A DNA stretch of 19,374 nt from a virus (lineage: Duplodnaviria; Heunggongvirae; Uroviricota; Caudoviricetes). The stretch is taken from the IMG/VR virus record IMGVR_UViG_2690316142_000006. One strand, given 5' to 3'. Numbering within the stretch: position 1 is the stretch's first letter; every line of letters begins with the position of its first letter. Positions 2,757 through 19,374 of the stretch are shown piece by piece. The translations under genes were made by a program, and so were the position numbers. The notes under the pieces are model-generated. The model ran no database searches. It was not told the DNA's origin and saw only the letters and a program-made list of their open reading frames with translations.

Positions 2757-5700
2757 ATGGGTAAAGGCAGCAGTAAGGGGCATACCCCGCGCGAAGCGAA
2801 GGACAACCTGAAATCCACGCAGTTGCTGAGTGTGATTGATGCCATCAGCGAAGGGCCGGTTGACGGTCCGGTGGATGGATTAAAAAGCGTGCTGCTGAAC
2901 GGTACGCCGGTCCTGGACAGCGAGGGGAAGACAAACTTTTCCGGTGTTACGGTGGTGTTCCGTGCAGGTGAGCAGGAGCAGACACCGCCGGAGGGTTTTG
3001 AATCCTCCGGCTCCGAGACGGTGCTGGGTACGGAAGTGAAATATGACACGCCGATCACCCGGACCATCACGTCGGCAAACATCGACCGTCTGCGCCTGAC
3101 CTTCGGTGTGCAGGCACTGGTGGAAACCACCTCAAAGGGTGACCGGAATCCGTCGGAAGTCCGCCTGCTGGTTCAGATACAGCGTAACGGTGGCTGGGTG
3201 ACGGAAAAAGACATCACCATTAAGGGCAAAACCACTTCGCAGTATCTGGCCTCGGTGGTGGTGGGTAACCTGCCGCCGCGCCCGTTTAATATCCGGATGC
3301 GCAGGATGACACCGGACAGCACCACAGACCAGCTGCAGAACAAAACGCTCTGGTCGTCGTACACCGAAATCATCGATGTGAAACAGTGCTACCCGAACAC
3401 GGCGCTGGTCGGCGTGCAGGTGGATTCAGAGCAGTTCGGTAACCAGCAGGTGAGTCGCAATTATCATCTTCGCGGGCGCATTCTGCAGGTGCCGTCGAAC
3501 TATAATCCGCAGACGCGGCAATACAGCGGTATCTGGGACGGAACGCTTAAGCCAGCATACAGCAACAACATGGCCTGGTGTCTGTGGGACATGCTCACTC
3601 ATCCGCGCTACGGCATGGGGAAACGTCTTGGTGCGGCAGATGTGGACAAATGGGCGCTGTATGTCATCGGCCAGTACTGCGACCAGTCAGTGACGGACGG
3701 ATTTGGCGGCACGGAGCCGCGCATCACCTGTAACTCTTACCTGACCACACAGCGTAAGGCGTGGGATGTTCTCAGTGATTTCTGCTCGGCGATGCGCTGT
3801 ATGCCGGTATGGAACGGACAGATGCTGACGTTCGTGCAGGACCGACCGTCGGATAAGGTGTGGACCTATAACCGCAGTAATGTGGTGATGCCGGACGATG
3901 GCGCGCCGTTCCGCTACAGCTTCAGCGCCCTGAAGGACCGCCATAATGCCGTTGAGGTGAACTGGATTGACCCAGATAACGGCTGGGAGACGGCGACAGA
4001 GCTTGTGGAGGATACGCAGGCCATTGTCCGTTACGGTCGTAACGTCACGAAGATGGATGCCTTTGGCTGTACCAGCCGGGGGCAGGCACACCGAGCCGGG
4101 CTGTGGCTGATTAAAACGGAACTGCTGGAAACGCAGACCGTGGACTTCAGCGTGGGCGCAGAAGGGCTTCGCCATGTACCGGGTGATGTCATTGAAATCT
4201 GCGATGATGATTATGCCGGTATCAGCACCGGTGGTCGCGTACTGGCGGTGAACAGCCAGACCCGGACGCTGACGCTCGACCGTGAAATCACGCTGCCGTC
4301 CTCCGGTACCACGCTGATAAGCCTGGTTGACGGAAGTGGCAATCCGGTCAGCGTGGAGGTCCAGTCCGTCACCGACGGCGTGAAGGTGAAAGTGAGCCGG
4401 GTTCCTGACGGCGTTGCAGAATACAGCGTGTGGGGGCTGAAGCTGCCGACGCTGCACCAGCGATTGTTCCGCTGCGTGAGTATCCGTGAGAACGACGACG
4501 GCACGTATGCCATCACCGCCGTGCAGCATGTGCCGGAAAAAGAGGCCATCGTGGATAACGGGGCACACTTTGACGGTGACCGGCGCGGCACGGTGAATGG
4601 TGTCACGCCGCCAGCGGTGCAGCACCTGACTGCCGAAGTCACCGCAGACAGCGGGGAATATCAGGTGCTGGCGCGATGGGACACGCCGAAGGTGGTGAAG
4701 GGTGTGAGCTTCCTGCTTCGCCTGACCGTGGCAGCGGACGACGGCAGTGAGCGGCTGGTCAGCACAGCCAGGACGACGGAAACCACATACCGCTTCAGGC
4801 AGCTGGCGCTGGGGAATTACAGTCTGACAGTCCGGGCGGTAAATGCCCGGGGGCAGCAGGGCGATCCGGCGTCGGTATCGTTCCGGATTGCGGCACCGGC
4901 AGCGCCTGTCACTATTGAACTGATACCGGGGTATTTTCAGATAACGGCGGTCCCGAAACTGGCTGTATATGACCCGACGGTGCAGTTTGAGTTCTGGTTT
5001 TCGGAAAAGCGGATTGCGGATATCAGGCAGGTTGAAACCAGCGCCCGCTATCTTGGCACGGCGCTGTACTGGATAGCCGCCAGTATCAATATCAGGCCGG
5101 GCCATGATTATTATTTTTACGTTCGCAGTGTGAACACCGTTGGCAAATCGGCATTTGTGGAGGCCATCGGTCGGGCGAGCGATGATGCAGAAGGTTATCT
5201 GAATTTTTATAAAGGGTTGATCAATAAAACGCATCTCGGCAAGGAGTTGTGGACGCAGATTGATAACGGTCAGCTTGCGCCGGACCTGACTGAAATCAGG
5301 ACGTCCATTACGAATGTCAGCAATGAAATCACGCTGCCATCCTCCGGCACCACGCTGATAAGCCTGGTTGACGGGCAGGGGAATCCGGTCAGCGTGGAGG
5401 TCCAGTCCGTCACCGACGGCGTGAAGGTAAAAGTGAGCCGTGTTCCTGACGGTGTTGCTGAATACAGCGTGTGGGGGCTGAAGCTGCCGACGCTGCACCA
5501 GCGATTGTTCCGCTGCGTGAGTATCCGTGAGAACGACGACGGCACGTATGCCATCACCGCCGTGCAGCATGTGCCGGAAAAAGAAGCCATCGTGGATAAC
5601 GGGGCGCACTTTGACGGCGACCAGAGCGGCACGGTGAATGGTGTCACGCCGCCAGCGGTGCAGCACCTGACTGCCGAAGTCACCGCAGACAGCGGGGAAT

Positions 5701-7295
5701 ATCAGGTGCTGGCGCGCTGGGACACGCCGAAGGTGGTGAAGGGCGTGAGCTTCCTGCTCCGTCTGACCGTAACAGCGGATGACGGCAGTGAGCGGCTGGT
5801 CAGCACGGCCCGGACGACGGAAACCACTTACCGCTTCACACAACTGGCGCTGGGGAACTACAGGCTGACAGTCCGGGCAGTAAATGCGTGGGGGCAGCAG
5901 GGCGATCCGGCGTCGGTATCGTTCCGGATTGCCGCACCGGCAGCGCTGTCGCGGATTGAGCTGACGCCGGGCTATTTTCAGATAACCGCCACGCCGCATC
6001 TTGCGGTTTATGATCCGACGGTACAGTTTGAGTTCTGGTTCTCGGAAAAGCGGATTGCGGATATCAGGCAGGTTGAAACCACAGCACGCTATCTTGGCAC
6101 GGCGCTGTACTGGATAGCCGCCAGTATCAATATCAAACCGGGCCATGATTATTACTTTTATATCCGCAGTGTGAACACCGTTGGCAAATCGGCATTCGTG
6201 GAGGCTGTTGGTCAGCCGAGTGATGATGCATCCGGTTATCTGGATTTTTTCAAAGGCGAGATAGGGAAAACCCATCTGGCTCAGGAGCTGTGGACGCAGA
6301 TTGATAACGGTCAGCTTGCGCCTGACCTGGCTGAAATCAGGACGTCCATTACGGATGTCAGCAATGAAATCACGCAGACCGTCAATAAGAAACTGGAAGA
6401 CCAGAGTGCGGCAATTCAGCAGATACAGAAGGTTCAGGTTGATACAAATAATAACCTGAACAGCATGTGGGCTGTGAAGCTGCAGCAGATGCAGGACGGA
6501 CGCCTTTATATCGCGGGTATTGGTGCCGGTATTGAGAACACCCCTGACGGCATGCAGAGTCAGGTGCTGCTGGCGGCGGACAGGATTGCGATGGTTAATC
6601 CTGCGAATGGCAACACAAAACCGATGTTTGTTGGTCAGGGCGATCAGATATTCATGAACGACGTGTTCCTGAAACGCCTGACGGCCCCCACCATTACCAG
6701 CGGTGGAAATCCATCGGCATTTTCCCTGACTCCGGACGGAAAGCTGACCGCTAAAAATGCGGATATCAGTGGCAGTGTGAATGCGAACGCCGGGACGCTC
6801 AACAATGTCACGGTAAATGAAAACTGTACGATTAAGGGCATGCTGGAGGCGACTCAGGTCAGAGGTGACTTCGTTAAAGCTGTATCCAAATCATTTCCGA
6901 AACAGGCTGGTACGTGGGGTAACACGGAAACACCAAACGGGACGGTTACAGTCACCATAAGCGATGATCATAACTTTGACCGCCAGATTATTATTCCGCC
7001 CATTATTTTTAACGGTATAGCGTATGACGATCCGGGGAGCGGAAATAACCCAGGAGGCACGCGATACACGGGTTATGGTTTTGAAGTTCGCAAAAACGGC
7101 GTATTAATCGCATCCAGAGAAACTAAAGGTGCCATTCCCGGTAGTTACAGTGCAGTTATTGATATGCCTAGTGGTGGTGGTAGCGTCACTCTGGAGTTTA
7201 AGATTTTCCAGAAAGGCAATCAGGGGGCAGGCAATATCACCGACTGTACGGTGATTGTGACCAAAAAAGCGGCTTCCGGCATCAGTATTCGTTGA
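2757..7295 (+). CDS. J: Tail tip / central tail fibre host-specificity protein J, 1512 aa, with an internal in-frame duplication
   Basis: N-terminus [34 protein letters not shown] matches lambda J as I recall it. Conserved J motifs throughout (e.g. [21 protein letters not shown]). About 347 aa longer than a lambda-type J because of the tandem duplication at 4284-6365. Confidence 0.9.
4284..6365 (+). repeat. Tandem direct repeat inside J: two 1041-bp units (4284-5324 and 5325-6365), about 95% identical
   Basis: Both units start with gaaatcacgcTGCC and the same 10-mer gaaatcacgc recurs at 6366. Protein block from [16 protein letters not shown] to TSIT(N/D)VSNE occurs twice. Unit length is a multiple of 3. 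Confidence 0.85.
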
Positions 7296-7365: not shown

Positions 7366-7842
7366 ATGCGTAAAGTTTGTGCAGCCATTTTGTCCGCAGC
7401 CATTTGCCTGGCCGTATCCGGTGCGCCTGCATGGGCGTCTGAACATCAGTCCACGCTGAGCGCGGGGTATCTTCATGCCCGGACCAACGTTCCCGGCAGT
7501 GATGATCTGAACGGGATTAACGTGAAATACCGTTATGAGTTTACGGATACGCTGGGGCTGGTGACGTCATTCAGCTATGCAGGAGACAAGAATCGCCAGC
7601 TGACCCGTTACAGCGATACCCGCTGGCATGAAGATTCCGTGCGTAACCGCTGGTTCAGCGTGATGGCGGGGCCGTCTGTGCGCGTGAATGAATGGTTCAG
7701 CGCGTATGCGATGGCGGGTGTGGCTTACAGCCGTGTGTCGACTTTTTCCGGGGATTATATCCGCGTAACTGACAATAAGGGGAAAACGCACGATGTGCTG
7801 ACCGGAAGTGATGACGGTCGCCACAGCAACACGTCTCTGGCG
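7366..7842 (+). CDS. lom: Lom family outer-membrane protein (Ail/Lom/OmpX/PagC beta-barrel family), 3'-truncated at an N/junction
   Basis: Signal peptide MRKVCAAILSAAICLAVSGAPAWA, GAGAGG RBS, aromatic-rich beta-strand pattern. The reading frame runs into N at 7843 and then into J-internal sequence. Confidence 0.75.
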
Positions 7843-7843
7843 N
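7843..7843. other. Single unresolved base (N) at a junction between lom sequence and J-internal sequence
   Basis: Literal n in the sequence. Flanks are lom ...tctctggcg on the left and J-internal gcaccggcagcgcctgtcact on the right. Confidence 0.95.
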
Positions 7844-9187
7844 GCACCGGCAGCGCCTGTCACTATTGAACTGATACCGGGGTATTTTCAGATAACGGCG
7901 GTCCCGAAACTGGCTGTATATGACCCGACGGTGCAGTTTGAGTTCTGGTTTTCGGAAAAGCGGATTGCGGATATCAGGCAGGTTGAAACCACAGCACGCT
8001 ATCTTGGCACGGCGCTGTACTGGATAGCCGCCAGTATCAATATCAGGCCGGGCCATGATTATTATTTTTACGTTCGCAGTGTGAACACCGTTGGCAAATC
8101 GGCATTTGTGGAGGCCATCGGTCGGGCGAGCGATGATGCAGAAGGTTATCTGAATTTTTATAAAGGGTTGATCAATAAAACGCATCTCGGCAAGGAGTTG
8201 TGGACGCAGATTGATAACGGTCAGCTTGCGCCGGACCTGACTGAAATCAGGACGTCCATTACGAATGTCAGCAATGAAATCACGCAAACCGTCAATAAAA
8301 AACTGGAAAATCAGAGTGCTGCAATCCAGCAGATACAGAAAGTTCAGGTTGATACAAATAATAACCTGAACAGCATGTGGGCTGTGAAGCTGCAACAGAT
8401 GAAGGACGGACGCCTTTATATTGCGGGTATCGGTGCCGGTATTGAGAATACGCCAGCAGGAATGCAGAGTCAGGTGCTGCTGGCGGCAGACAGGATTGCG
8501 ATGATTAATCCTGCGAATGGCAACACAAAGCCGATGTTTGTTGGTCAGGGCGATCAGATATTCATGAACGACGTGTTCCTGAAATGCCTGACGGCTCCGA
8601 CCATTACCAGCGGCGGTAATCCTCCGGCATTTTCCCTGACACCTGGCGGACGGCTGACGGCGAAAAATGCCGATATCAGCGGTAACGTGAACGCGAACTC
8701 CGGGACGCTCAACAACGTCACGATTAATAAGAACTGTCGGGTTCTGGGAAAATTGTCCGCGAACCAGATTGAAGGCGATCTCGTTAAAACAGTGGGCAAA
8801 CCTTTCCCACGGGACTCCCGGGCACCGGAGAGGTGGCCATCAGGGACCATTACCGTCAGGGTTTATGACGATCAGCCGTTTGATCGGCAAATTGTTATTC
8901 CCGCGGTGGCGTTTCGCGGTGCTAAACATGAGCGGAAGAATAACAATATTTATTCGTCATGCCGCCTGATAGTGAAGAAAAACGGTGCTGAAATTTATAA
9001 CCGAACGACCCTGGATAATACGCTGATATATACGGGTGTTATTGATATGCCTGCCGGTCACGGTCACATGACGCTGGAGTTTTCTGTATCGGCATGGCTG
9101 GTAAATGGCTGGTATCCCACAGCAAGTATCAGCGATTTGCTGGTTGTGGTGATGAAGAAAGCCACTGCAGGCATCACGATTAGCTGA
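7844..9187 (+). CDS. J: J protein 3' fragment (second copy, no 5' part) with a different C-terminal receptor-binding region
   Basis: Starts mid-gene at sequence equivalent to J position 4893. A mosaic of unit-1-like and unit-2-like sequence. The C-terminal ~150 aa (...[35 protein letters not shown]...[10 protein letters not shown]) differs from the copy at 6840-7295. Confidence 0.8.
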
Positions 9188-9206
9188 ATTTTATAACCCA
9201 GATACG

Positions 9207-9233
9207 GGCACCAGAAATGGTGCCTTTTTTATT
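9207..9233 (+). terminator. Rho-independent terminator downstream of the J fragment
   Basis: ggcacc-agaaat-ggtgcc followed by ttttttatt. Confidence 0.55.
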
Positions 9234-9254
9234 GCAGAAAAGCGAGAGGTAATT

Positions 9255-9854
9255 ATGCGTAAAGTTTGTGCAGCCATTTTGTCCGCAGCCATTTGCCTGG
9301 CCGTATCCGGTGCGCCTGCATGGGCGTCTGAACATCAGTCCACGCTGAGCGCCGGGTATCTTCAGACCCATACTGATATGCCAGGCAGCGATGACCTGAA
9401 GGGCATTAACGTGAAATACCGTTATGAGTTTACGGACACGCTGGGGCTGATTACGTCATTCAGTTATGCCAACGCTGAAGATGAGCAAAAAACGCATTAC
9501 AGCGATACCCGCTGGCATGAGGATTCCGTGCGTAACCGCTGGTTCAGCGTGATGGCGGGGCCGTCTGTGCGCGTGAATGAATGGTTCAGCGCGTATGCGA
9601 TGGCGGGCGTGGCTTACAGCCGTGTGTCGACCTTCTCCGGGGATTATCTCCGCGTAACTGACAACAAGGGGAAAACGCACGATGTGCTGACCGGAAGTGA
9701 TGGCGGTCGCCACAGCAACACGTCTCTGGCGTGGGGGGCTGGCGTGCAGTTTAACCCGACCGAATCCGTGGCCATTGACCTTGCTTATGAAGGTTCCGGC
9801 AGTGGTGACTGGCGCACTGACGGTTTCATCGTGGGTGTCGGTTATAAGTTCTGA
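9255..9854 (+). CDS. lom: Lom family outer-membrane protein, intact (199 aa)
   Basis: Complete ORF with signal peptide and C-terminal ...GFIVGVGYKF ending in the terminal aromatic typical of beta-barrel outer-membrane proteins. Same upstream RBS context as the other copies. Confidence 0.9.
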   Translation: MRKVCAAILSAAICLAVSGAPAWASEHQSTLSAGYLQTHTDMPGSDDLKGINVKYRYEFTDTLGLITSFSYANAEDEQKTHYSDTRWHEDSVRNRWFSVMAGPSVRVNEWFSAYAMAGVAYSRVSTFSGDYLRVTDNKGKTHDVLTGSDGGRHSNTSLAWGAGVQFNPTESVAIDLAYEGSGSGDWRTDGFIVGVGYKF

Positions 9855-9882
9855 TTAGCCAGGTAACACAGTGTTATGACTG

Positions 9883-9906
9883 CCCGCTGGTTCAGGCGGG
9901 CTTTTT
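9883..9906 (+). terminator. Rho-independent terminator downstream of lom
   Basis: gcccgc-tggttca-gcgggc followed by ttttt, immediately upstream of the stf start. Confidence 0.6.
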
Positions 9907-9917
9907 GTGGGGTGAAT

Positions 9918-10244
9918 ATGGCAGTAAAGATTTCAGGTGTACTGAAAGATGGGGCGGGTAAACCTGTCGTAAATTGTGCGATTGAACTGCGGGCCAGAAG
10001 AACCAGTCCGACCGTTGTGGCACACGTTGTTGCCACTTGCGTGACGGACAATAACGGTGCTTATGTGATTGAGGCTGAGCCGGGGTATTACGAGGTTGCG
10101 CTTCACTGTAACGGCTGGCAGCCAACCCGTGTCGGGGATATTGATGTGGCACCGACTGATGCACCGGGGACACTGAACGCGTTTCTGAATGCACCAAAGG
10201 ATGGTGATTTACGTCCGGAGGTGATGAAGTGTCAGCGCCAGTGA
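9918..10244 (+). pseudogene. stf: Side tail fibre (stf) 5' fragment, interrupted after about 109 codons by an IS21-family element
   Basis: [12 protein letters not shown]... is homologous to the N-terminus of the full stf at 14926 but a diverged allele. The ORF stops at TGA 10242-10244 where the IS terminal sequence begins. The track ORF start at 9876 lies inside the lom terminator hairpin, so 9918 is preferred. Confidence 0.75.
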
Positions 10245-10330
10245 TATAAGACGGTAATTCGCCATTTGGATTGTCCGCTCCACCCAACATGTTGTTTCCT
10301 TAAGGTTCTCACACCAGAAAGGACATCAAC

Positions 10331-12300
<1,970 letters not shown>

Positions 12301-12349
12301 CGAAAGTATTTAGCGGGCATGAAAATGGCAAATAACGGTCAAACATCGT

Positions 12350-12360
12350 NNNNNNNNNNN
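12350..12360. other. Assembly gap (11 N)
   Basis: Literal n run. Left flank is the IS21-family right end, right flank is J-internal sequence. Confidence 0.98.
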
Positions 12361-14274
12361 AATCCGGTCAGCGTGGAGGTCCAGTCCGTCACCGACGGCG
12401 TGAAGGTAAAAGTGAGCCGTGTTCCTGACGGTGTTGCTGAATACAGCGTGTGGGGGCTGAAGCTGCCGACGCTGCACCAGCGATTGTTCCGCTGCGTGAG
12501 TATCCGTGAGAACGACGACGGCACGTATGCCATCACCGCCGTGCAGCATGTGCCGGAAAAAGAAGCCATCGTGGATAACGGGGCGCACTTTGACGGCGAC
12601 CAGAGCGGCACGGTGAATGGTGTCACGCCGCCAGCGGTGCAGCACCTGACTGCCGAAGTCACCGCAGACAGCGGGGAATATCAGGTGCTGGCGCGCTGGG
12701 ACACGCCGAAGGTGGTGAAGGGCGTGAGCTTCCTGCTCCGTCTGACCGTAACAGCGGATGACGGCAGTGAGCGGCTGGTCAGCACGGCCCGGACGACGGA
12801 AACCACTTACCGCTTCACACAACTGGCGCTGGGGAACTACAGGCTGACAGTCCGGGCAGTAAATGCGTGGGGGCAGCAGGGCGATCCGGCGTCGGTATCG
12901 TTCCGGATTGCCGCACCGGCAGCGCTGTCGCGGATTGAGCTGACGCCGGGCTATTTTCAGATAACCGCCACGCCGCATCTTGCGGTTTATGATCCGACGG
13001 TACAGTTTGAGTTCTGGTTCTCGGAAAAGCGGATTGCGGATATCAGGCAGGTTGAAACCACAGCACGCTATCTTGGCACGGCGCTGTACTGGATAGCCGC
13101 CAGTATCAATATCAAACCGGGCCATGATTATTACTTTTATATCCGCAGTGTGAACACCGTTGGCAAATCGGCATTCGTGGAGGCTGTTGGTCAGCCGAGT
13201 GATGATGCATCCGGTTATCTGGATTTTTTCAAAGGCGAGATAGGGAAAACCCATCTGGCTCAGGAGCTGTGGACGCAGATTGATAACGGTCAGCTTGCGC
13301 CTGACCTGGCTGAAATCAGGACGTCCATTACGGATGTCAGCAATGAAATCACGCAGACCGTCAATAAGAAACTGGAAGACCAGAGTGCGGCAATTCAGCA
13401 GATACAGAAGGTTCAGGTTGATACAAATAATAACCTGAACAGCATGTGGGCTGTGAAGCTGCAGCAGATGCAGGACGGACGCCTTTATATCGCGGGTATT
13501 GGTGCCGGTATTGAGAACACCCCTGACGGCATGCAGAGTCAGGTGCTGCTGGCGGCGGACAGGATTGCGATGGTTAATCCTGCGAATGGCAACACAAAAC
13601 CGATGTTTGTTGGTCAGGGCGATCAGATATTCATGAACGACGTGTTCCTGAAACGCCTGACGGCCCCCACCATTACCAGCGGTGGAAATCCATCGGCATT
13701 TTCCCTGACTCCGGACGGAAAGCTGACCGCTAAAAATGCGGATATCAGTGGCAGTGTGAATGCGAACGCCGGGACGCTCAACAATGTCACGGTAAATGAA
13801 AACTGTACGATTAAGGGCATGCTGGAGGCGACTCAGGTCAGAGGTGACTTCGTTAAAGCTGTATCCAAATCATTTCCGAAACAGGCTGGTACGTGGGGTA
13901 ACACGGAAACACCAAACGGGACGGTTACAGTCACCATAAGCGATGATCATAACTTTGACCGCCAGATTATTATTCCGCCCATTATTTTTAACGGTATAGC
14001 GTATGACGATCCGGGGAGCGGAAATAACCCAGGAGGCACGCGATACACGGGTTATGGTTTTGAAGTTCGCAAAAACGGCGTATTAATCGCATCCAGAGAA
14101 ACTAAAGGTGCCATTCCCGGTAGTTACAGTGCAGTTATTGATATGCCTAGTGGTGGTGGTAGCGTCACTCTGGAGTTTAAGATTTTCCAGAAAGGCAATC
14201 AGGGGGCAGGCAATATCACCGACTGTACGGTGATTGTGACCAAAAAAGCGGCTTCCGGCATCAGTATTCGTTGA
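12361..14274 (+). CDS. J: J protein 3' fragment (third copy), identical to J 5382-7295
   Basis: Translation is identical to the C-terminal 637 aa of the full J. The track ORF 12319-14274 (MKMANNGQTSXXXX...) is an artificial fusion across the N gap. Confidence 0.8.
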
Positions 14275-14296
14275 AATATTTATAACCCCAATAAAT

Positions 14297-14323
14297 GGCG
14301 TCAGGAATGACGCCTTTTTTATT
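14297..14323 (+). terminator. Rho-independent terminator downstream of J (copy of 7318-7344)
   Basis: Same hairpin plus T-run as 7318-7344. Confidence 0.6.
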
Positions 14324-14344
14324 GCAGAAAAGCGAGAGGTAATT

Positions 14345-14827
14345 ATGCGTAAAGTTTGTGCAGCCATTTTGTCCGCAGCCATTTGCCTGGCCGTATCCGG
14401 TGCGCCTGCATGGGCGTCTGAACATCAGTCCACGCTGAGCGCGGGGTATCTTCATGCCCGGACCAACGTTCCCGGCAGTGATGATCTGAACGGGATTAAC
14501 GTGAAATACCGTTATGAGTTTACGGATACGCTGGGGCTGGTGACGTCATTCAGCTATGCAGGAGACAAGAATCGCCAGCTGACCCGTTACAGCGATACCC
14601 GCTGGCATGAAGATTCCGTGCGTAACCGCTGGTTCAGCGTGATGGCGGGGCCGTCTGTGCGCGTGAATGAATGGTTCAGCGCGTATGCGATGGCGGGTGT
14701 GGCTTACAGCCGTGTGTCGACTTTTTCCGGGGATTATATCCGCGTAACTGACAATAAGGGGAAAACGCACGATGTGCTGACCGGAAGTGATGACGGTCGC
14801 CACAGCAACACGTCTCTGGCGCACTGA
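14345..14827 (+). pseudogene. lom: lom with an 83-bp internal deletion and frameshift (premature stop)
   Basis: Aligns to lom 9255-9854 up to ...NTSLA (tctctggcg), then resumes at cactgacggtttcatcgtgggtgtcggttataaattctga. This omits the equivalent of 9732-9814; the deleted block ends in ctggcg, the same hexamer that precedes it. Confidence 0.75.
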
Positions 14828-14914: not shown

Positions 14915-14925
14915 GTGGGGTGAAT

Positions 14926-17900
14926 ATGGCAGTAAAGATTTCAGGTGTACTGAAAGACGGCACAGGAAAACCGGTACAGAACTGCACAATCCAGCTGAAA
15001 GCAAAACGTAACAGCACCACGGTGGTGGTGAACACGCTGGCCTCAGAAAATCCGGATGAAGCCGGGCGTTACAGCATGGACGTTGAGTACGGTCAGTACA
15101 GCGTTATTCTGTTGGTGGAAGGATTCCCGCCGTCACATGCCGGGACCATCACCGTGTATGAAGATTCCCGACCCGGTACGCTGAATGATTTTCTCGGTGC
15201 CATGACGGAGGATGATGCCCGTCCGGAGGCACTGCGCCGTTTTGAGCTGATGGTGGAAGAGGTGGCGCGTAACGCGTCCGCGGTGGCACAGAACACGGCA
15301 GCCGCGAAGAAATCAGCCAGCGATGCCAGCACATCAGCCCGTGAGGCGGCAACCCATGCGACTGATGCTGCAGATTCAGCACGTGCAGCCAGCACGTCAG
15401 CCGGACAGGCCGCTTCGTCGGCTCAGTCAGCGTCTTCCAGCGCAGGAACGGCATCAACAAAGGCCACTGAAGCCTCAAAAAGTGCTGCCGCTGCAGAGTC
15501 CTCAAAAAGCGCGGCGGCTACCAGTGCCGGTGCGGCGAAAACGTTAGAAACGAATGCGGCAGCGTCACAACAATCAGCAGCCACTTCTGCATCCACCGCG
15601 ACCACGAAAGCGTCAGAAGCTGCCACCTCAGCCCGGGATGCGTCGGCTTCAAAAGAGGCGGCAAAATCATCAGAAACGAACGCATCATCAAGCGCCAGTA
15701 GCGCAGCTTCCTCGGCGACGGCGGCTGCAAATTCTGCGAAGGCGGCCAAAACGTCCGAGACGAACGCCAGGTCTTCTGAAACGGCAGCGGGACAGAGTGC
15801 CTCAGCTGCGGCAGGCTCAAAAACAGCGGCTGCGTCGTCTGCCAGCGCCGCGTCAACAAGTGCCGGGCAGGCCTCAGCCAGTGCCACCGCCGCCGGAAAA
15901 TCGGCAGAAAGCGCCGCATCATCCGCTTCAACAGCCACAACGAAGGCTGGCGAAGCCACTGAGCAGGCCACGGCAGCAGCGAGGTCAGCTTCCGCAGCGA
16001 AGACATCCGAAACGAACGCGAAAGCGTCGGAAACCCGTGCAGAATCCTCAAAAACGGCTGCCGCATCGTCCGCCAGTTCGGCGGCGTCATCGGCATCATC
16101 GGCGTCTGCTTCAAAAGATGAGGCGACCAGACAGGCGTCAGCAGCGAAGGGCAGCGCCACGACGGCATCCACGAAGGCGACAGAGGCTGCTGGTAGTGCG
16201 ACGGCAGCAGCTCAGAGCAAAAGTACGGCGGAATCTGCAGCAACGCGCGCTGAGACAGCGGCAAAACGGGCAGAGGATATTGCATCCGCCGTGGCGCTTG
16301 AGGATGCGAGCACGACGAAAAAGGGGATAGTACAGCTCAGTAGTGCGACTAACAGCACTTCCGAGTCACTGGCGGCAACACCAAAAGCCGTTAAGGCCGC
16401 GTATGACCTGGCTAACGGGAAATACACCGCACAGGATGCAACGACAGCACAGAAAGGGATAATCCAGCTAAGCAGCGCGACCAACAGCACGTCTGAAACG
16501 CTGGCGGCAACGCCAAAGGCAGTAAAAGCAGCCAATGACAATGCTGAGAAACGTCTGCAGAAAGATCAGAACGGTGCGGATATCCCTGGCAAAGACACCT
16601 TTACGAAAAATATTGGTGCCTGCCGTGCCTTCGGTGGGTCAGTAAGCACAACAACAGGAAACTGGACGACTGCACAGTTTATCGAGTGGCTGGATTCTCA
16701 GGGAGCATTTAACCATCCATACTGGATGTGCAAGGGTTCCTGGTCTTATGGCAATAATAAAATCATTACTGATACTGGCTGCGGTAATATTCATCTCGCC
16801 GGAGCTGTCATTGAAGTAATGGGGATAAAGTCAGCGATGACGATCCGCATTACCACTCCGACCACATCCAGCGGTGGCGGAACAACCAACGCCCAGTTTA
16901 CCTATATTAATCACGGAACAGATTATTCACCTGGCTGGCGAAGGGACTATAACTCCAGAAATAAGCCAACGGCATCAGAGATCGGGGCGCTACCGTCAGG
17001 TGGAACAGCAGTATCATCAGTTAATCTGGCTTCAAAAGGTCGGGTAGCCGCGCTGACAGACAATACGCAGGGGGCAGCAGGTCTTGAGTTATACGAGGTG
17101 TATAACAACGGATATCCAACAGCGTATGGAAATATCATTCACCTGAAAGGGATGACAGCCGTTGGCGAAGGTGAGTTACTCATCGGCTGGAGTGGTACAA
17201 GCGGTGCTCATGCTCCGGCATTTATTCGTTCACGACGGGATACGACCGACGCAAACTGGTCGCCGTGGGCGCAGCTTTACACCTCGGCTCATCCTCCTGC
17301 AGAGTTTTATCCAGTCGGTGCACCAATCCCGTGGCCATCAGATACCGTTCCGTCTGGTTATGCCCTGATGCAGGGGCAGACTTTTGACAAATCTGCTTAC
17401 CCGAAACTTGCAGCCGCTTATCCGTCAGGCGTGATCCCTGATATGCGTGGCTGGACGATTAAGGGCAAGCCCGCCAGTGGTCGTGCCGTATTGTCTCAGG
17501 AACAGGATGGCATTAAATCGCACACCCACAGCGCCAGCGCATCCAGTACGGATTTGGGGACGAAAACCACATCGTCGTTTGATTACGGCACTAAATCCAC
17601 GAATAACACCGGGGCGCATACGCACAGTCTGAGCGGCTCTACAAGTTCAGCTGGGGCCCACCAACATAGTCAGACTGGGCCCAGAACGAATAGCGGGAGT
17701 CAACCTACTGGAATGTTTCCGGCAGGGAGTACTCAAGTTAGCGGGACTAATCAGGTTGGTATCAGTGGCTCATTAACCAGTGGCACCTCCCAATGGGTAG
17801 GTAAATCATCTTCAGAAGGAAACCATACACACTCACTGTCCGGCACAGCAGCATCTGCGGGTGCACACGCGCATACTGTCGGTATTGGTGCTCATACGCA

Positions 17901-18009
17901 CTCTGTTGCGATTGGTTCACATGGACACACCATCACCGTTAACGCTGCTGGTAACGCGGAAAACACCGTCAAAAACATCGCATTTAACTATATTGTGAGG
18001 CTCGCATAA
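14926..18009 (+). CDS. stf: Side tail fibre protein Stf (about 1027 aa) with a T4 gp37-like His-rich tip
   Basis: N-terminus [60 protein letters not shown] matches lambda Stf as I recall it. Long Ala/Ser/Thr-rich low-complexity shaft; two copies of KGI(V/I)[11 protein letters not shown](S/T)[11 protein letters not shown]; seven HxH motifs near the C-terminus. True start is ATG 14926; the track ORF starts at GTG 14920. Confidence 0.9.
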
Positions 18010-18590
18010 TGGCATTCAGAATGAGTGAACAAGCACGGACCATAAAAATTTATAACCTGCTGGCCGGAACTAATGAATTTATTGGTGAAGGTGACGCATA
18101 TATTCCGCCTCATACAGGTCTGCCTGCAAACAGTACCGATATTGCACCGCCAGATATTCCGGCTGGTTTCGTGGCTGTTTTCAACAGTGATGAGTCATCG
18201 TGGCATCTCGTTGAAGATCATCGGGGTAAAACGGTTTATGACGTGGCTTCCGGCGACGCGTTATTTATTTCTGAACTCGGCTCATTACCGGAAAATGTCA
18301 CCTGGTTATCCCCGGAAGGGGAGTTTCAGAAGTGGAACGGCACAGCCTGGGTGAAGGATACGGAAGCAGAAAAACTGTTCCGGATCCGGGAGGCGGAAGA
18401 AACAAAAAACAGCCTGATGCAGGTAGCCAGTGAGCATATAGCGCCGCTTCAGGATGCTGTGGATCTGGAGATCGCAACGGAGAAAGAAACCTTGTTGCTG
18501 GAAGCTTGGAAAAAGTATCGGGTGTTGCTGAACCGTGTTGATACATCAACTGCACCGGATATTGAATGGCCAGTAGCACCTATAGGGTAA
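18009..18590 (+). CDS. tfa: Tail fibre assembly protein Tfa (lambda Tfa family), 193 aa
   Basis: [54 protein letters not shown]... is near-identical to lambda Tfa as I recall it. Start overlaps the stf stop (taATGg). Confidence 0.9.
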
Positions 18591-18599
18591 ATTCGTAAT

Positions 18600-19339
18600 G
18601 ATTACCTAAATACGTTATTCTTTTGTTAAAAAAGTGATTTTGCTATAGGTAGGGAGTATGTTCTTGGATTAAGAATAAAAAATCGCCATGAAAGAGCTTC
18701 ATGGCGAGTACATAAACGTACAAAATGTGATGAAAGTAGAGTGGCGTAAGCCACTATATTAAGATATGACAATAGCGAAGAAAAGTAAATAACATTTTAT
18801 GGACGTTTAATTGTTAATTATAAAAACTAGAGTGCCCGATATTGTTTATCTTGCTTTAAAATAATGTACTCAAACCAAATTTTTGAGCTAAAAGCTCAAA
18901 TAATATAAATGCAATAATAATGTTTAATAAGACAATTAGCTTGCTTTGTATTTTCATTTCGGAATACTGTTAAGTAACTTTGATGACCCTAACAATAGAT
19001 CGGAATTTTCTTAGAGTCAATGGTCACTGTTTTTGCTTGCAAAGCAAATGTTTTGGTGGTTATAAGTCGTCTTAATATAGTCACGCATGCAACTTGTTCC
19101 ATGCGGAGATTAAAGATTGGAATATAACGCGAAGATGGAATTAAATTACATTTGCAATAATTAATTTATTATTACTCAATAATTACCGATATTATTATTG
19201 TAAATTAATCATTAGAATGCAAAAAGAAATGTAACGGCAAAATAAGAGGACGATAGCTGAGAAAAAAGCGTGCTTTCCCAATCTGGGGCAAATCACGTCT
19301 GAATGACACCTGAAAACAGGTGGTAGCCTCAAGAAGGCT
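18600..19339. other. AT-rich (about 30% GC) non-coding region between tfa and IS1
   Basis: No ORF of 60 aa or more on either strand. All three minus-strand frames carry frequent stops (tta/cta/tca triplets checked through 18716-18970). Several short palindromes. Base composition differs sharply from the ~50-55% GC tail genes. Confidence 0.7.
18671..18706 (-). terminator. Hairpin with a T-run on the minus strand (possible terminator for leftward transcription)
   Basis: cgccatgaa-agagc-ttcatggcg (9-bp stem); the flanking plus-strand aagaataaaaaat reads as a T-run on the minus strand. Confidence 0.4.
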
Positions 19340-19374
19340 GGTGATGCTGCCAACTTACTGATTTAGTGTATGAT
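19340..19374 (+). mobile_element. IS1 terminal inverted repeat and first 35 bp (element continues beyond the window)
   Basis: ggtgatgctgccaacttactgatttagtgtatgat matches the start of IS1 as I remember it. Confidence 0.8.

Follow-up and report, generated by a model that had tools for sequence, protein, structure and literature searches.

A lambdoid side tail fibre with a probable T4 gp37-type needle and an uncommon tip

The stf-tfa locus

The window (the whole stretch of DNA that was analysed, 19,374 nucleotides) contains a side tail fibre gene of an E. coli prophage and the gene of its assembly chaperone:

14920..18009, + strand: stf (side tail fibre), an open reading frame of 1029 aa including a GTG-start extension
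18009..18590, + strand: tfa (tail fibre assembly chaperone), 193 aa; PF02413 (Caudo_TAP), 4.6e-44; phrog_105, 5e-100

The real start of stf is likely the ATG at 14926, and the translation (14920-18006, +) ends in NYIVRLA. The ATG of tfa overlaps the TAA stop of stf (TAATG). From N- to C-terminus, Stf consists of a domain for tail attachment, a rod rich in Ala and Ser, two Phage_fiber_2 repeats, a middle region and a gp37-type collar with needle. Among the Pfam matches, the prophage tail fibre N-terminal domain PF08400 covers aa 3-136 (1.4e-71), PF03406 is found twice (6.3e-37) and the Collar domain PF07484 lies at aa 800-847 (7e-12). The open reading frames that neighbour stf in the window are J fragments and Ail/Lom, and full-length homologues of 983-1025 aa are present in complete E. 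coli genomes in the gene order J-lom-stf-tfa. Judged by the PF08400 domain and by its place downstream of J, with lom on one side and tfa on the other, the protein classes as a lambdoid side tail fibre.

Two open reading frames in other frames overlap stf, at 17425-17625 (-) and 17447-17632 (+), and were judged spurious because conservation at the protein level is seen in the stf frame. An invertible segment of the kind present in P1, Mu and e14, in which tfa would be followed by a second fibre end or by invertase sites, was rejected, since 18590-19374 holds only open reading frames of at most 52 aa and weak inverted repeats. The surroundings in the window, which include an exact repeat of 2461 nt and a J/lom/stf-N insert bounded by Ns, resemble a scaffold put together from more than one prophage allele.

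Tfa had been read as a gp38-like chaperone, and this assignment is borne out by the PF02413 match together with 31% identity to T4 gp38 (E = 3e-20) and 93% identity to the lambda-type Tfa of HK630.

The HxH motifs and their counterparts in T4 gp37

The sequence-only reading had named seven HxH strings near the C-terminus of Stf. All seven are present in the translation:

17521-17529, + strand: HxH 1, KSHTHS, His 868/870
17617-17625, + strand: HxH 2, GAHTHS, His 900/902
17659-17667, + strand: HxH 3, GAHQHS, His 914/916
17824-17832, + strand: HxH 4, GNHTHS, His 969/971
17866-17874, + strand: HxH 5, GAHAHT, His 983/985
17893-17901, + strand: HxH 6, GAHTHS, His 992/994
17920-17928, + strand: HxH 7, GSHGHT, His 1001/1003

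The span proposed for them, 17521-17928, is exact: it opens with the codon for the first His of motif 1 and closes with that for the last His of motif 7. Their placement in the last ~170 residues also fits, as motif 1 begins 162 residues before the C-terminus, and the linkers, described earlier as Gly/Ser/Thr-rich, are indeed so and are rich in Ala as well. All 14 His residues within the last 234 residues of Stf sit in HxH pairs, and these 14 are invariant across 40 homologues. A chance or low-complexity origin of the pairs is ruled out by shuffling: randomised versions of the last 234 residues contained 0.8 HxH motifs on average and five at most, and none of 5000 reached seven. Furthermore, PF03335 (Phage_fiber, a 14-residue repeat) scores 35.0 bits over five stretches of the C-terminal tip, above its curated gathering threshold of 20; T4 gp37 yields six stretches and 41.8 bits in the same scan.

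[quoted passage not shown] A profile search returned the same entry at 2.3e-104, and tblastn to T4 gene 37 gave 64% identity over 233 aa. The proposed homology to the gp37 tip is thereby detected by both sequence and profile search, and it extends across the whole D10-D11 module. A T4 gp12-type short tail fibre was rejected as an alternative assignment. The sole short-tail-fibre match in the phmmer search of the PDB was 9cuy ('Short tail fiber'; query 69-143, E = 2.4e-08), to which the similarity stops at the collar, and no gp12 entry appeared at phmmer E <= 1 or profile E <= 0.01.

With the D10 boundaries of T4 gp37 taken from Islam 2019 (PMC6957217), the module divides into five predicted parts:

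17308..17517, + strand: collar, N-terminal part (aa 797-866), equivalent to T4 gp37 D10 residues 811-881; 59/69 identical (86%); PF07484
17518..17667, + strand: needle stem, outgoing strand (aa 867-916), HxH 1-3; 40/50 identical to T4 882-931 (80%)
17668..17805, + strand: tip (head) subdomain (aa 917-962), 46 aa against 28 in T4; 6/28 aligned residues identical (21%)
17806..17955, + strand: needle stem, returning strand (aa 963-1012), HxH 4-7; 33/50 identical to T4 960-1009 (66%)
17956..18006, + strand: collar, C-terminal part (aa 1013-1029); 16/17 identical to T4 1010-1026 (94%)

The likeness of the HxH motifs to those of the T4 iron needle holds residue by residue in the alignment, in which all 14 His residues pair one-to-one with a T4 HxH residue. 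On the outgoing strand, T4 H883/885, H915/917 and H929/931 correspond to Stf 868/870, 900/902 and 914/916, the essential G921 is kept as G906, and a 30-residue stretch free of His contains the sequence SFDYGTK. On the returning strand, H966/968, H980/982, H989/991 and H998/1000 correspond to 969/971, 983/985, 992/994 and 1001/1003; G964 is kept as G967 and F970 is replaced by L973. The spacing of the motifs (32, 14, [tip], 14, 9, 9) equals that of T4 gp37, and the C-terminal collar stretch (aa 1013-1029) is invariant across the 40 homologues.

The iron-binding HxH needle of T4 gp37 was solved in 2010, and Bartual is said to have assigned each of the seven HxH motifs to one iron in that year. 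The T4 needle holds seven ferrous ions, with H929 and H931 as iron ligands (Islam 2019, PMC6957217), and alanine substitution of either residue abolishes plaque formation, G921 being essential as well (PMC6957217).

The metal itself could be a different one in Stf. In the short tail fibre gp12 of T4, the one HxH site binds Zn, and the same fold with the same His6 sites might hold zinc, as there, or nickel or manganese, depending on availability. The sequence alone does not specify which metal, and the collar (PF07484) is common to short tail fibres, as the collar-only match to 9cuy illustrates. A metal other than iron is nevertheless distinctly unlikely, given that the closest solved relative (64% identity, every ligand kept) is described with seven ferrous ions (PMC6957217) and that the sequence flanking each HxH motif is nearly identical to that of T4.

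The same conservation bears on the possibility that stf is inert and merely left over from a defective prophage, in which case the needle would be encoded but never built and the motifs would be without present function. Related stf copies lie at the ydfJ (Qin-type) locus, the neighbouring tfaQ and a capsid/protease gene of the closest genome are annotated as frameshifted pseudogenes, and in the window the J-lom region is duplicated and lom truncated. However, stf is an uninterrupted reading frame of 1029 aa, tfa is intact and all structurally critical residues are conserved. In addition, the inducible PhiR26_1, a phage isolated on K-12, shares the stem and is 86% identical overall across the tip region, and the irregularities of the window are more suggestive of assembly artefacts than of decay. 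We therefore regard a relic as unlikely.

Topology and length of the needle

The position of PF07484 at aa 800-847 and of a C-terminal collar strand at aa 1013-1029 indicates that the Stf needle is a long insertion into the Collar domain, carried by a collar formed from aa 797-866 and 1013-1029. In the deduplicated family set, the number of HxH motifs per needle ranges from four to eight, with one member having ten. The variation in length is coupled between the two strands. Outgoing units of 10 aa that lack His pair with returning 9-aa HxH units in 149 of the 151 distinct members surveyed, the outgoing length and the number of returning HxH units being 22/1, 32/2, 41-42/3 and 52/4. Similarly, the two sides of the tip carry equal numbers of 14-aa HxH units (0/0, 1/1 or 2/2) in 150 of the 151. 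Coupled insertions and deletions on the outgoing and returning strands lend independent, if indirect, support to a hairpin topology in which the chain would fold back at the tip.

It had been suggested that the number and spacing of the HxH motifs set both the length of the needle and the geometry of its tip. The first part fits the family survey, and the same idea has already been published for Felixounavirus fibres (PMC12609058). The second part does not hold, as tip geometry would depend on the insert of variable sequence that separates motifs 3 and 4. An AlphaFold2 monomer model of the 234-aa tip, computed with a 40-sequence alignment, had a mean pLDDT of 46.4 and a pTM of 0.18; such low confidence is expected because the needle is presumed to be an obligate intertwined trimer.

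The exchangeable tip

Comparison with other stf alleles delimits an exchangeable segment at the DNA level:

~17646-17830 (about 185 nt), + strand: exchangeable DNA cassette, codons from just before HxH 3 to HxH 4

The identity of 30-nt windows to the stf genes of NCTC10444 and PhiR26_1 is 0.93-1.00 up to ~17610-17640, falls to 0.20-0.63 within 17641-17820 and is 0.97-1.00 again from 17881, with breaks in the base-level alignment at ~17645 and ~17836. The putative head is thus encoded by a cassette of ~185 nt flanked by the conserved DNA of the stem, in which the His motifs are encoded. The tip (aa 917-962) is predicted to be the receptor-contacting end and the only hypervariable part of the module, which would narrow the determinant of receptor specificity to ~140 nt (17668-17805).

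Conserved His-box DNA is said, in work by Tetart of 1996 and 1998, to mediate tip swapping. Our literature search on 'His boxes' together with gp37 returned nothing; a general statement in support of tip swapping is given in PMC3157838, and the mosaic of stf alleles described above also speaks for it. Homologous recombination in the conserved stem flanks would swap receptor specificity while the stem is kept.

The tip allele is rare among complete E. coli genomes, as the cassette is found at >=98.9% identity in about 11 of 5426. The tip insert is identical in three database proteins (P0001-P0003) and 94% identical in a fourth (P0004); in P0001, the entire C-terminal domain is identical to that of Stf. 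The next nearest tip is that of the Tequatrovirus slur03-type gp37 (57%), and all others are at most 44% identical. Among phage records, 30 match the tip insert, all of them T-even and with at most 62% identity. No receptor assignment was found for slur03/mar005P1-type gp37. Tentatively, the 46-residue tip may be a rare, uncharacterised specificity allele with relatives only in virulent T-even phages, directed at a receptor or receptor variant unlike the OmpC/LPS of T4 and Ur-lambda; we hold this as a possibility rather than an expectation. If true, a tip of novel specificity would document continuing tip exchange between virulent and temperate coliphages.

Proposed architecture and mechanism

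The last 234 residues of Stf most probably form a receptor-binding tip of the lambda/T4 gp37 type, with a collar bearing a needle insertion, a T4-like metal needle and a swappable head (probability about 0.9). By analogy with T4, three Stf chains would fold with the help of the adjacent Tfa. Each chain would run to the distal end (aa 867-916) and return (aa 963-1012), so that six strands intertwine into a beta needle. At seven axial levels, the inward-pointing HxH motifs of the three chains would create an octahedral site of six imidazoles that holds one metal ion, amounting to seven ions per fibre (Fe(II) in T4). These ions would act as internal rivets for folding and rigidity and not as receptor ligands. 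The 46-residue insert (aa 917-962) would constitute a small distal head making a reversible first contact with a host surface receptor, which may speed adsorption before J binds its own receptor. For T4 and Ur-lambda, the receptor for this contact is OmpC and/or LPS.

A different role for the metal is given by the 'Ferrojan horse', a published hypothesis that cites the HxH motifs of the T4 and lambda fibres (PMC11705849). Here, fibre iron would be bait for a host siderophore or iron receptor, and the HxH motifs would take part in receptor binding. In T4, however, H929 of the three chains forms an iron site, and mutagenesis puts receptor contact on surface residues of the tip subdomain (PMC6957217). 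Furthermore, the HxH stem is invariant in the family and only the tip varies, as would be expected were specificity located there. In the T4 structure, the irons are buried on the needle axis. A bait function is accordingly extremely improbable.

As far as sequence can tell, the Stf needle is a close relative of a well-known solved structure, and only the small outermost tip is an uncommon variant. PMC3157838 traces knowledge of the relationship between lambda Stf and T4 gp37 back to 1983-1992, citing George 1983 and Hendrix & Duda 1992. The present case therefore carries little weight as a discovery, and its practical value lies in an annotation with exact domain limits. Stf tips are in use for retargeting lambda-based delivery particles (PMC11338833), which makes it useful to catalogue natural tip cassettes together with the register of their stems; the Stf tip allele is one rare entry for such a catalogue. 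Should the tip prove to have a novel specificity, it would form, together with the length rule seen in the family (10 aa out with a 9-aa HxH unit back, and paired 14-aa HxH units), a practical recipe for chimeric needles.

Comparison with known tail fibres

The T4 gp37 tip shares with Stf the succession of collar, outgoing stem, tip, returning stem and collar, as well as the same C-terminus, and in both cases a dedicated chaperone gene follows the fibre gene. The tip subdomains, in contrast, are essentially unrelated, so that the mapped receptor-contact residues of T4 are without counterpart in Stf. Outside the tip module, Stf is a lambdoid side fibre (PF08400 N-terminus and Ala-rich rod), unlike the distal half-fibre of T4, and its chaperone is lambda Tfa-like, with T4 gp38 only distantly similar. 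PMC3157838 gives a lambda-like origin for g38 and for the 3' end of g37 in T4.

The slur03/mar005P1-type gp37 of Tequatrovirus and Mosigvirus forms the sole other group in which the tip insert is recognisably related (57-62%), and has the pattern SQTGPR...QPTG.[FY]P.GST..SGT...GTSQ[WY]..KSS.EGN in common with Stf. These T-even phages, however, are virulent myoviruses of ~168 kb with an eight-motif needle, and their tip is ~40% divergent from that of Stf.

Ur-lambda Stf/Tfa agrees with the present locus in the J-lom-stf-tfa order, the N-terminal domain family and the collar and stem sequences, and probably in its role as an accessory adsorption fibre. According to PMC12617516, the Ur-lambda Stf tip is a homologue of gp37, and docking into OmpC is predicted for it. 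The comparison with lambda-type Stf that had been proposed was run on sequence and shows the same collar and stem, but eight HxH motifs (42, 14, 48, 14, 9, 9, 9) instead of seven, and a different tip insert. The lambda-type needle has one extra unit in each direction, SFDYGTKTTG going out and IGAHQHPVV coming back; the Stf needle is therefore one module shorter than that of lambda and equals that of T4 in length. The rod of the 1029-aa Stf is longer than that of the lambda-type protein.

Other E. coli prophage Stf alleles have a different tip cassette, e.g. RDGRRFNPSVFKDTYQYG..., and those of the NCTC10444, PhiR26_1 and K-12 StfR/StfQ class share with Stf near-identical flanking DNA and the same seven stem motifs.

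The side tail fibre gene and its setting

The open reading frame at 14920-18009 (+) encodes a lambdoid side tail fibre, Stf. This identification follows from Pfam matches to a prophage tail-fibre N-terminal domain (Stf aa 3-136), two Phage_fiber_2 repeats and a Collar domain (aa 800-847), from the neighbouring assembly gene tfa, from the J fragments and Ail/Lom genes lying 5' of stf, and from complete E. coli genomes, in which lambdoid prophages adjoining ydfJ end with the same gene order, J-lom-stf-tfa. The stop codon of stf is overlapped by the ATG of tfa. Tfa shares 93% identity with its counterpart in the lambda-type phage HK630 and 31% with T4 gp38 (E = 3e-20), which, together with the Caudo_TAP match, agrees with its earlier description as a gp38-like chaperone.

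Features of the window
2757-7295: J open reading frame, 1512 aa
9255-9854: lom, complete, of a second gene set, 199 aa
9876-10244: stf N-terminal fragment of the second set
14345-14827: lom, short copy, 160 aa
14920-18009 (+): stf, 1029 aa
18009-18590 (+): tfa, Caudo_TAP tail-fibre assembly protein (Pfam)

The window looks like a scaffold, or an assembly-graph walk, across several prophage alleles. The segment 5382-7842, comprising the C-terminal part of J and the start of lom, recurs at 12361-14821 (2461 nt, 100% identity), and N positions stand at the repeat borders (7842-7843 and 12349-12360), copy 1 ending at N and copy 2 starting directly after the run of 12. The interval between the copies (7844-12348) holds another J C-terminus, lom and stf N-terminal fragment, a second set with about 88% identity. 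None of the complete genomes follows the window colinearly, and the best locus among those of E. coli is only about 11.2 kb long, against 19.4 kb for the window. Compared with strain Z1323HEC0016, the short lom lacks 78 nt exactly at the end of the repeat (junction 14821/14822), so that its truncation coincides with the join. The J frame is about 350 aa longer than J of the related genomes examined (about 1130-1165 aa), because an internal direct duplication (4283-5334 versus 5324-6375, spacing 1041 nt, 91% identity) repeats both Ig_J and Ig_J_second; the duplication may be genuine or a further artefact of assembly. The scaffold problem leaves the 3' end of stf and tfa untouched, both being 98-99% identical to complete genomes.

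Downstream of tfa, the AT-rich interval 18590-19374 corresponds to the prophage end that lies upstream of ydfJ in related genomes. Its inverted repeats are weak, its ORFs do not exceed 52 aa, and neither an invertase nor an alternative fibre end was found in it. In strain Z1323HEC0016, a recombinase gene comes after tfaQ. The Ala/Ser/Thr-rich rod of stf (about 15300-16450) gives rise to long spurious ORFs (100-258 aa) in the remaining frames, minus strand included, and differs in length from that of the closest genome (alignment break 16407/16453; whole Stf 1029 aa here versus 983 aa there). Just before the collar, aa 728-789 (17101-17286) show 79-86% protein identity to parts of two phage tail fibres, those of phage P1 gene S (the constant part beside the invertible segment) and of jumbo phage Goslar, and this stretch marks a further mosaic joint of the fibre.

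Match to the T4 gp37 needle

Translation of stf recovers all seven HxH strings quoted in the sequence-only reading, in the place it had assigned to them (17521-17928), with pairs beginning at residues 868, 900, 914, 969, 983, 992 and 1001. The last 234 residues contain 14 histidines, every one within such a pair. Shuffling this segment 5000 times gave on average 0.8 pairs and at most 5, with seven in 0/5000. The Pfam repeat PF03335 (Phage_fiber, short repeat) scores above threshold in five stretches of the Stf end.

The likeness to the iron-binding tip of T4 gp37 proposed in that reading is borne out. The last 234 aa strongly match one solved structure, the gp37 receptor-binding tip (PDB 2XGF; E = 8.4e-84, 2.3e-104 in a profile search), and T4 gene 37 is 64% identical to the Stf end across 233 aa (tblastn). 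By pairwise alignment, each T4 needle HxH (883/885, 915/917, 929/931, 966/968, 980/982, 989/991 and 998/1000) has a Stf counterpart. G921 and G964, essential in T4 (PMC6957217), are both kept, and F970 of the hydrophobic core is replaced by Leu. Motif spacing is 32, 14, 55, 14, 9, 9 in Stf compared to 32, 14, 37, 14, 9, 9 in T4. An AlphaFold2 model of the tip region, as monomer only, has a pLDDT of 46 and is uninformative.

Domains of the Stf end, with limits transferred from T4 (Islam et al. 2019, PMC6957217) by pairwise alignment, and residues identical to T4
aa 797-866: collar, N-terminal part, 59/69
aa 867-916: outgoing stem, 40/50
aa 917-962: tip subdomain, 6/28 aligned (46 aa here versus 28 in T4)
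aa 963-1012: returning stem, 33/50
aa 1013-1029: collar, C-terminal part, 16/17

A rare tip cassette

DNA identity in 30-nt windows to the stf alleles of E. coli NCTC10444 and phage PhiR26_1 is 0.93-1.00 as far as about 17610-17640, falls to 0.20-0.63 from about 17641 to 17820 and is back at 0.97-1.00 from about 17881. In the base-level alignment, the breaks lie just 5' of HxH 3 and just 3' of HxH 4. The drop between these points thus marks the receptor-binding head as an exchanged cassette, with conserved stem DNA on both sides. T-even adhesins show the same pattern, with exchanges within or near conserved motifs (PMC3157838).

The tip allele is rare. The whole 909-nt segment occurs at an identity of at least 98.9% in 11 of 5426 complete E. 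coli genomes, and 3905 of the 5426 hold partial matches only. Four database clusters carry this tip at 94-100% identity, outside these clusters the closest tips belong to T-even phages including slur03 and mar005P1 (57-62%), and none was found among the lambdoid phages of the phage collection searched. In P0121, a 938-aa protein from the representative search, the window's tip allele breaks off after 'GTSQWV' and is followed by sequence that starts midway through a different stf allele, which has its own complete seven-motif needle; this chimeric database ORF reflects either recombination or a faulty contig join within the tip cassette.

A stem length rule across relatives

Relatives comprised 120 close database proteins and 142 representatives of 50%-identity clusters. 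Nearly every protein of the close set bears seven motifs at constant stem spacing, and only the cross-tip distance differs (35 to 56 residues). Among 151 distinct complete tips, bearing 4 to 8 motifs per needle, the distance between motifs 1 and 2 is 22, 32, 41-42 or 52 residues, rising by one histidine-free SFDYGTK-type unit of 10 aa on the outgoing strand. These distances pair with exactly 1, 2, 3 and 4 trailing 9-residue HxH units, respectively, in 149/151 tips, and the 14-residue HxH units flanking the tip are equal in number on each side (0/0, 1/1 or 2/2) in 150/151. One further protein, with ten motifs and an incomplete C-terminus, falls outside this deduplicated set.

Across the family (proteins P0001-P0262), the needle stem is modular, the 10-aa units of the outgoing strand and the 9-aa HxH units of the returning strand being gained or lost together. 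Such pairing fits a fold-back hairpin, which requires coupled changes on two strands. The coupled counts support the earlier suggestion that needle length depends on how many motifs there are, a relation already put forward in a 2025 paper on phage Bas63 (PMC12609058).

Proposed working of the fibre tip

The Stf end is homologous to the T4 tip, keeps its ligands and adjoins a chaperone gene. By homology with T4, three Stf chains would fold assisted by Tfa, each leaving the collar, reaching the distal end and turning back, so that a six-stranded needle results. The HxH motifs of three chains would meet at seven levels, forming at each a His6 site that holds a metal ion, which is ferrous iron in T4; Bartual (2010) reportedly described each metal site as built from one HxH per chain. 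The metals would be structural in role, and the residues inserted after motif 3 and before motif 4 would be the head contacting the receptor. T4 gp37 holds seven irons, and Ala at H929 or H931 abolishes plaque formation (PMC6957217). The receptor of T4 and Ur-lambda is OmpC and/or LPS (PMC6957217; PMC12617516). Side fibres make Ur-lambda adsorb about 10- to 30-fold faster, yet are dispensable (PMC12617516).

Relation to known systems

The homology of lambda Stf to T4 gp37, the kinship of Tfa with gp38, the iron-binding HxH needle and the variable tip were all established before, and an identical C-terminal domain has already been deposited (P0001, 'tail fiber protein [Escherichia coli]', 100% identity). 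Added here are exact coordinates for the domains and limits for the cassette, the finding that the tip allele is rare and has its affinity with T-even tips, and a compact stem length rule. The needle equals that of T4 in length, whereas one additional module brings lambda-type Stf (HK630) and slur03-type gp37 to eight motifs.
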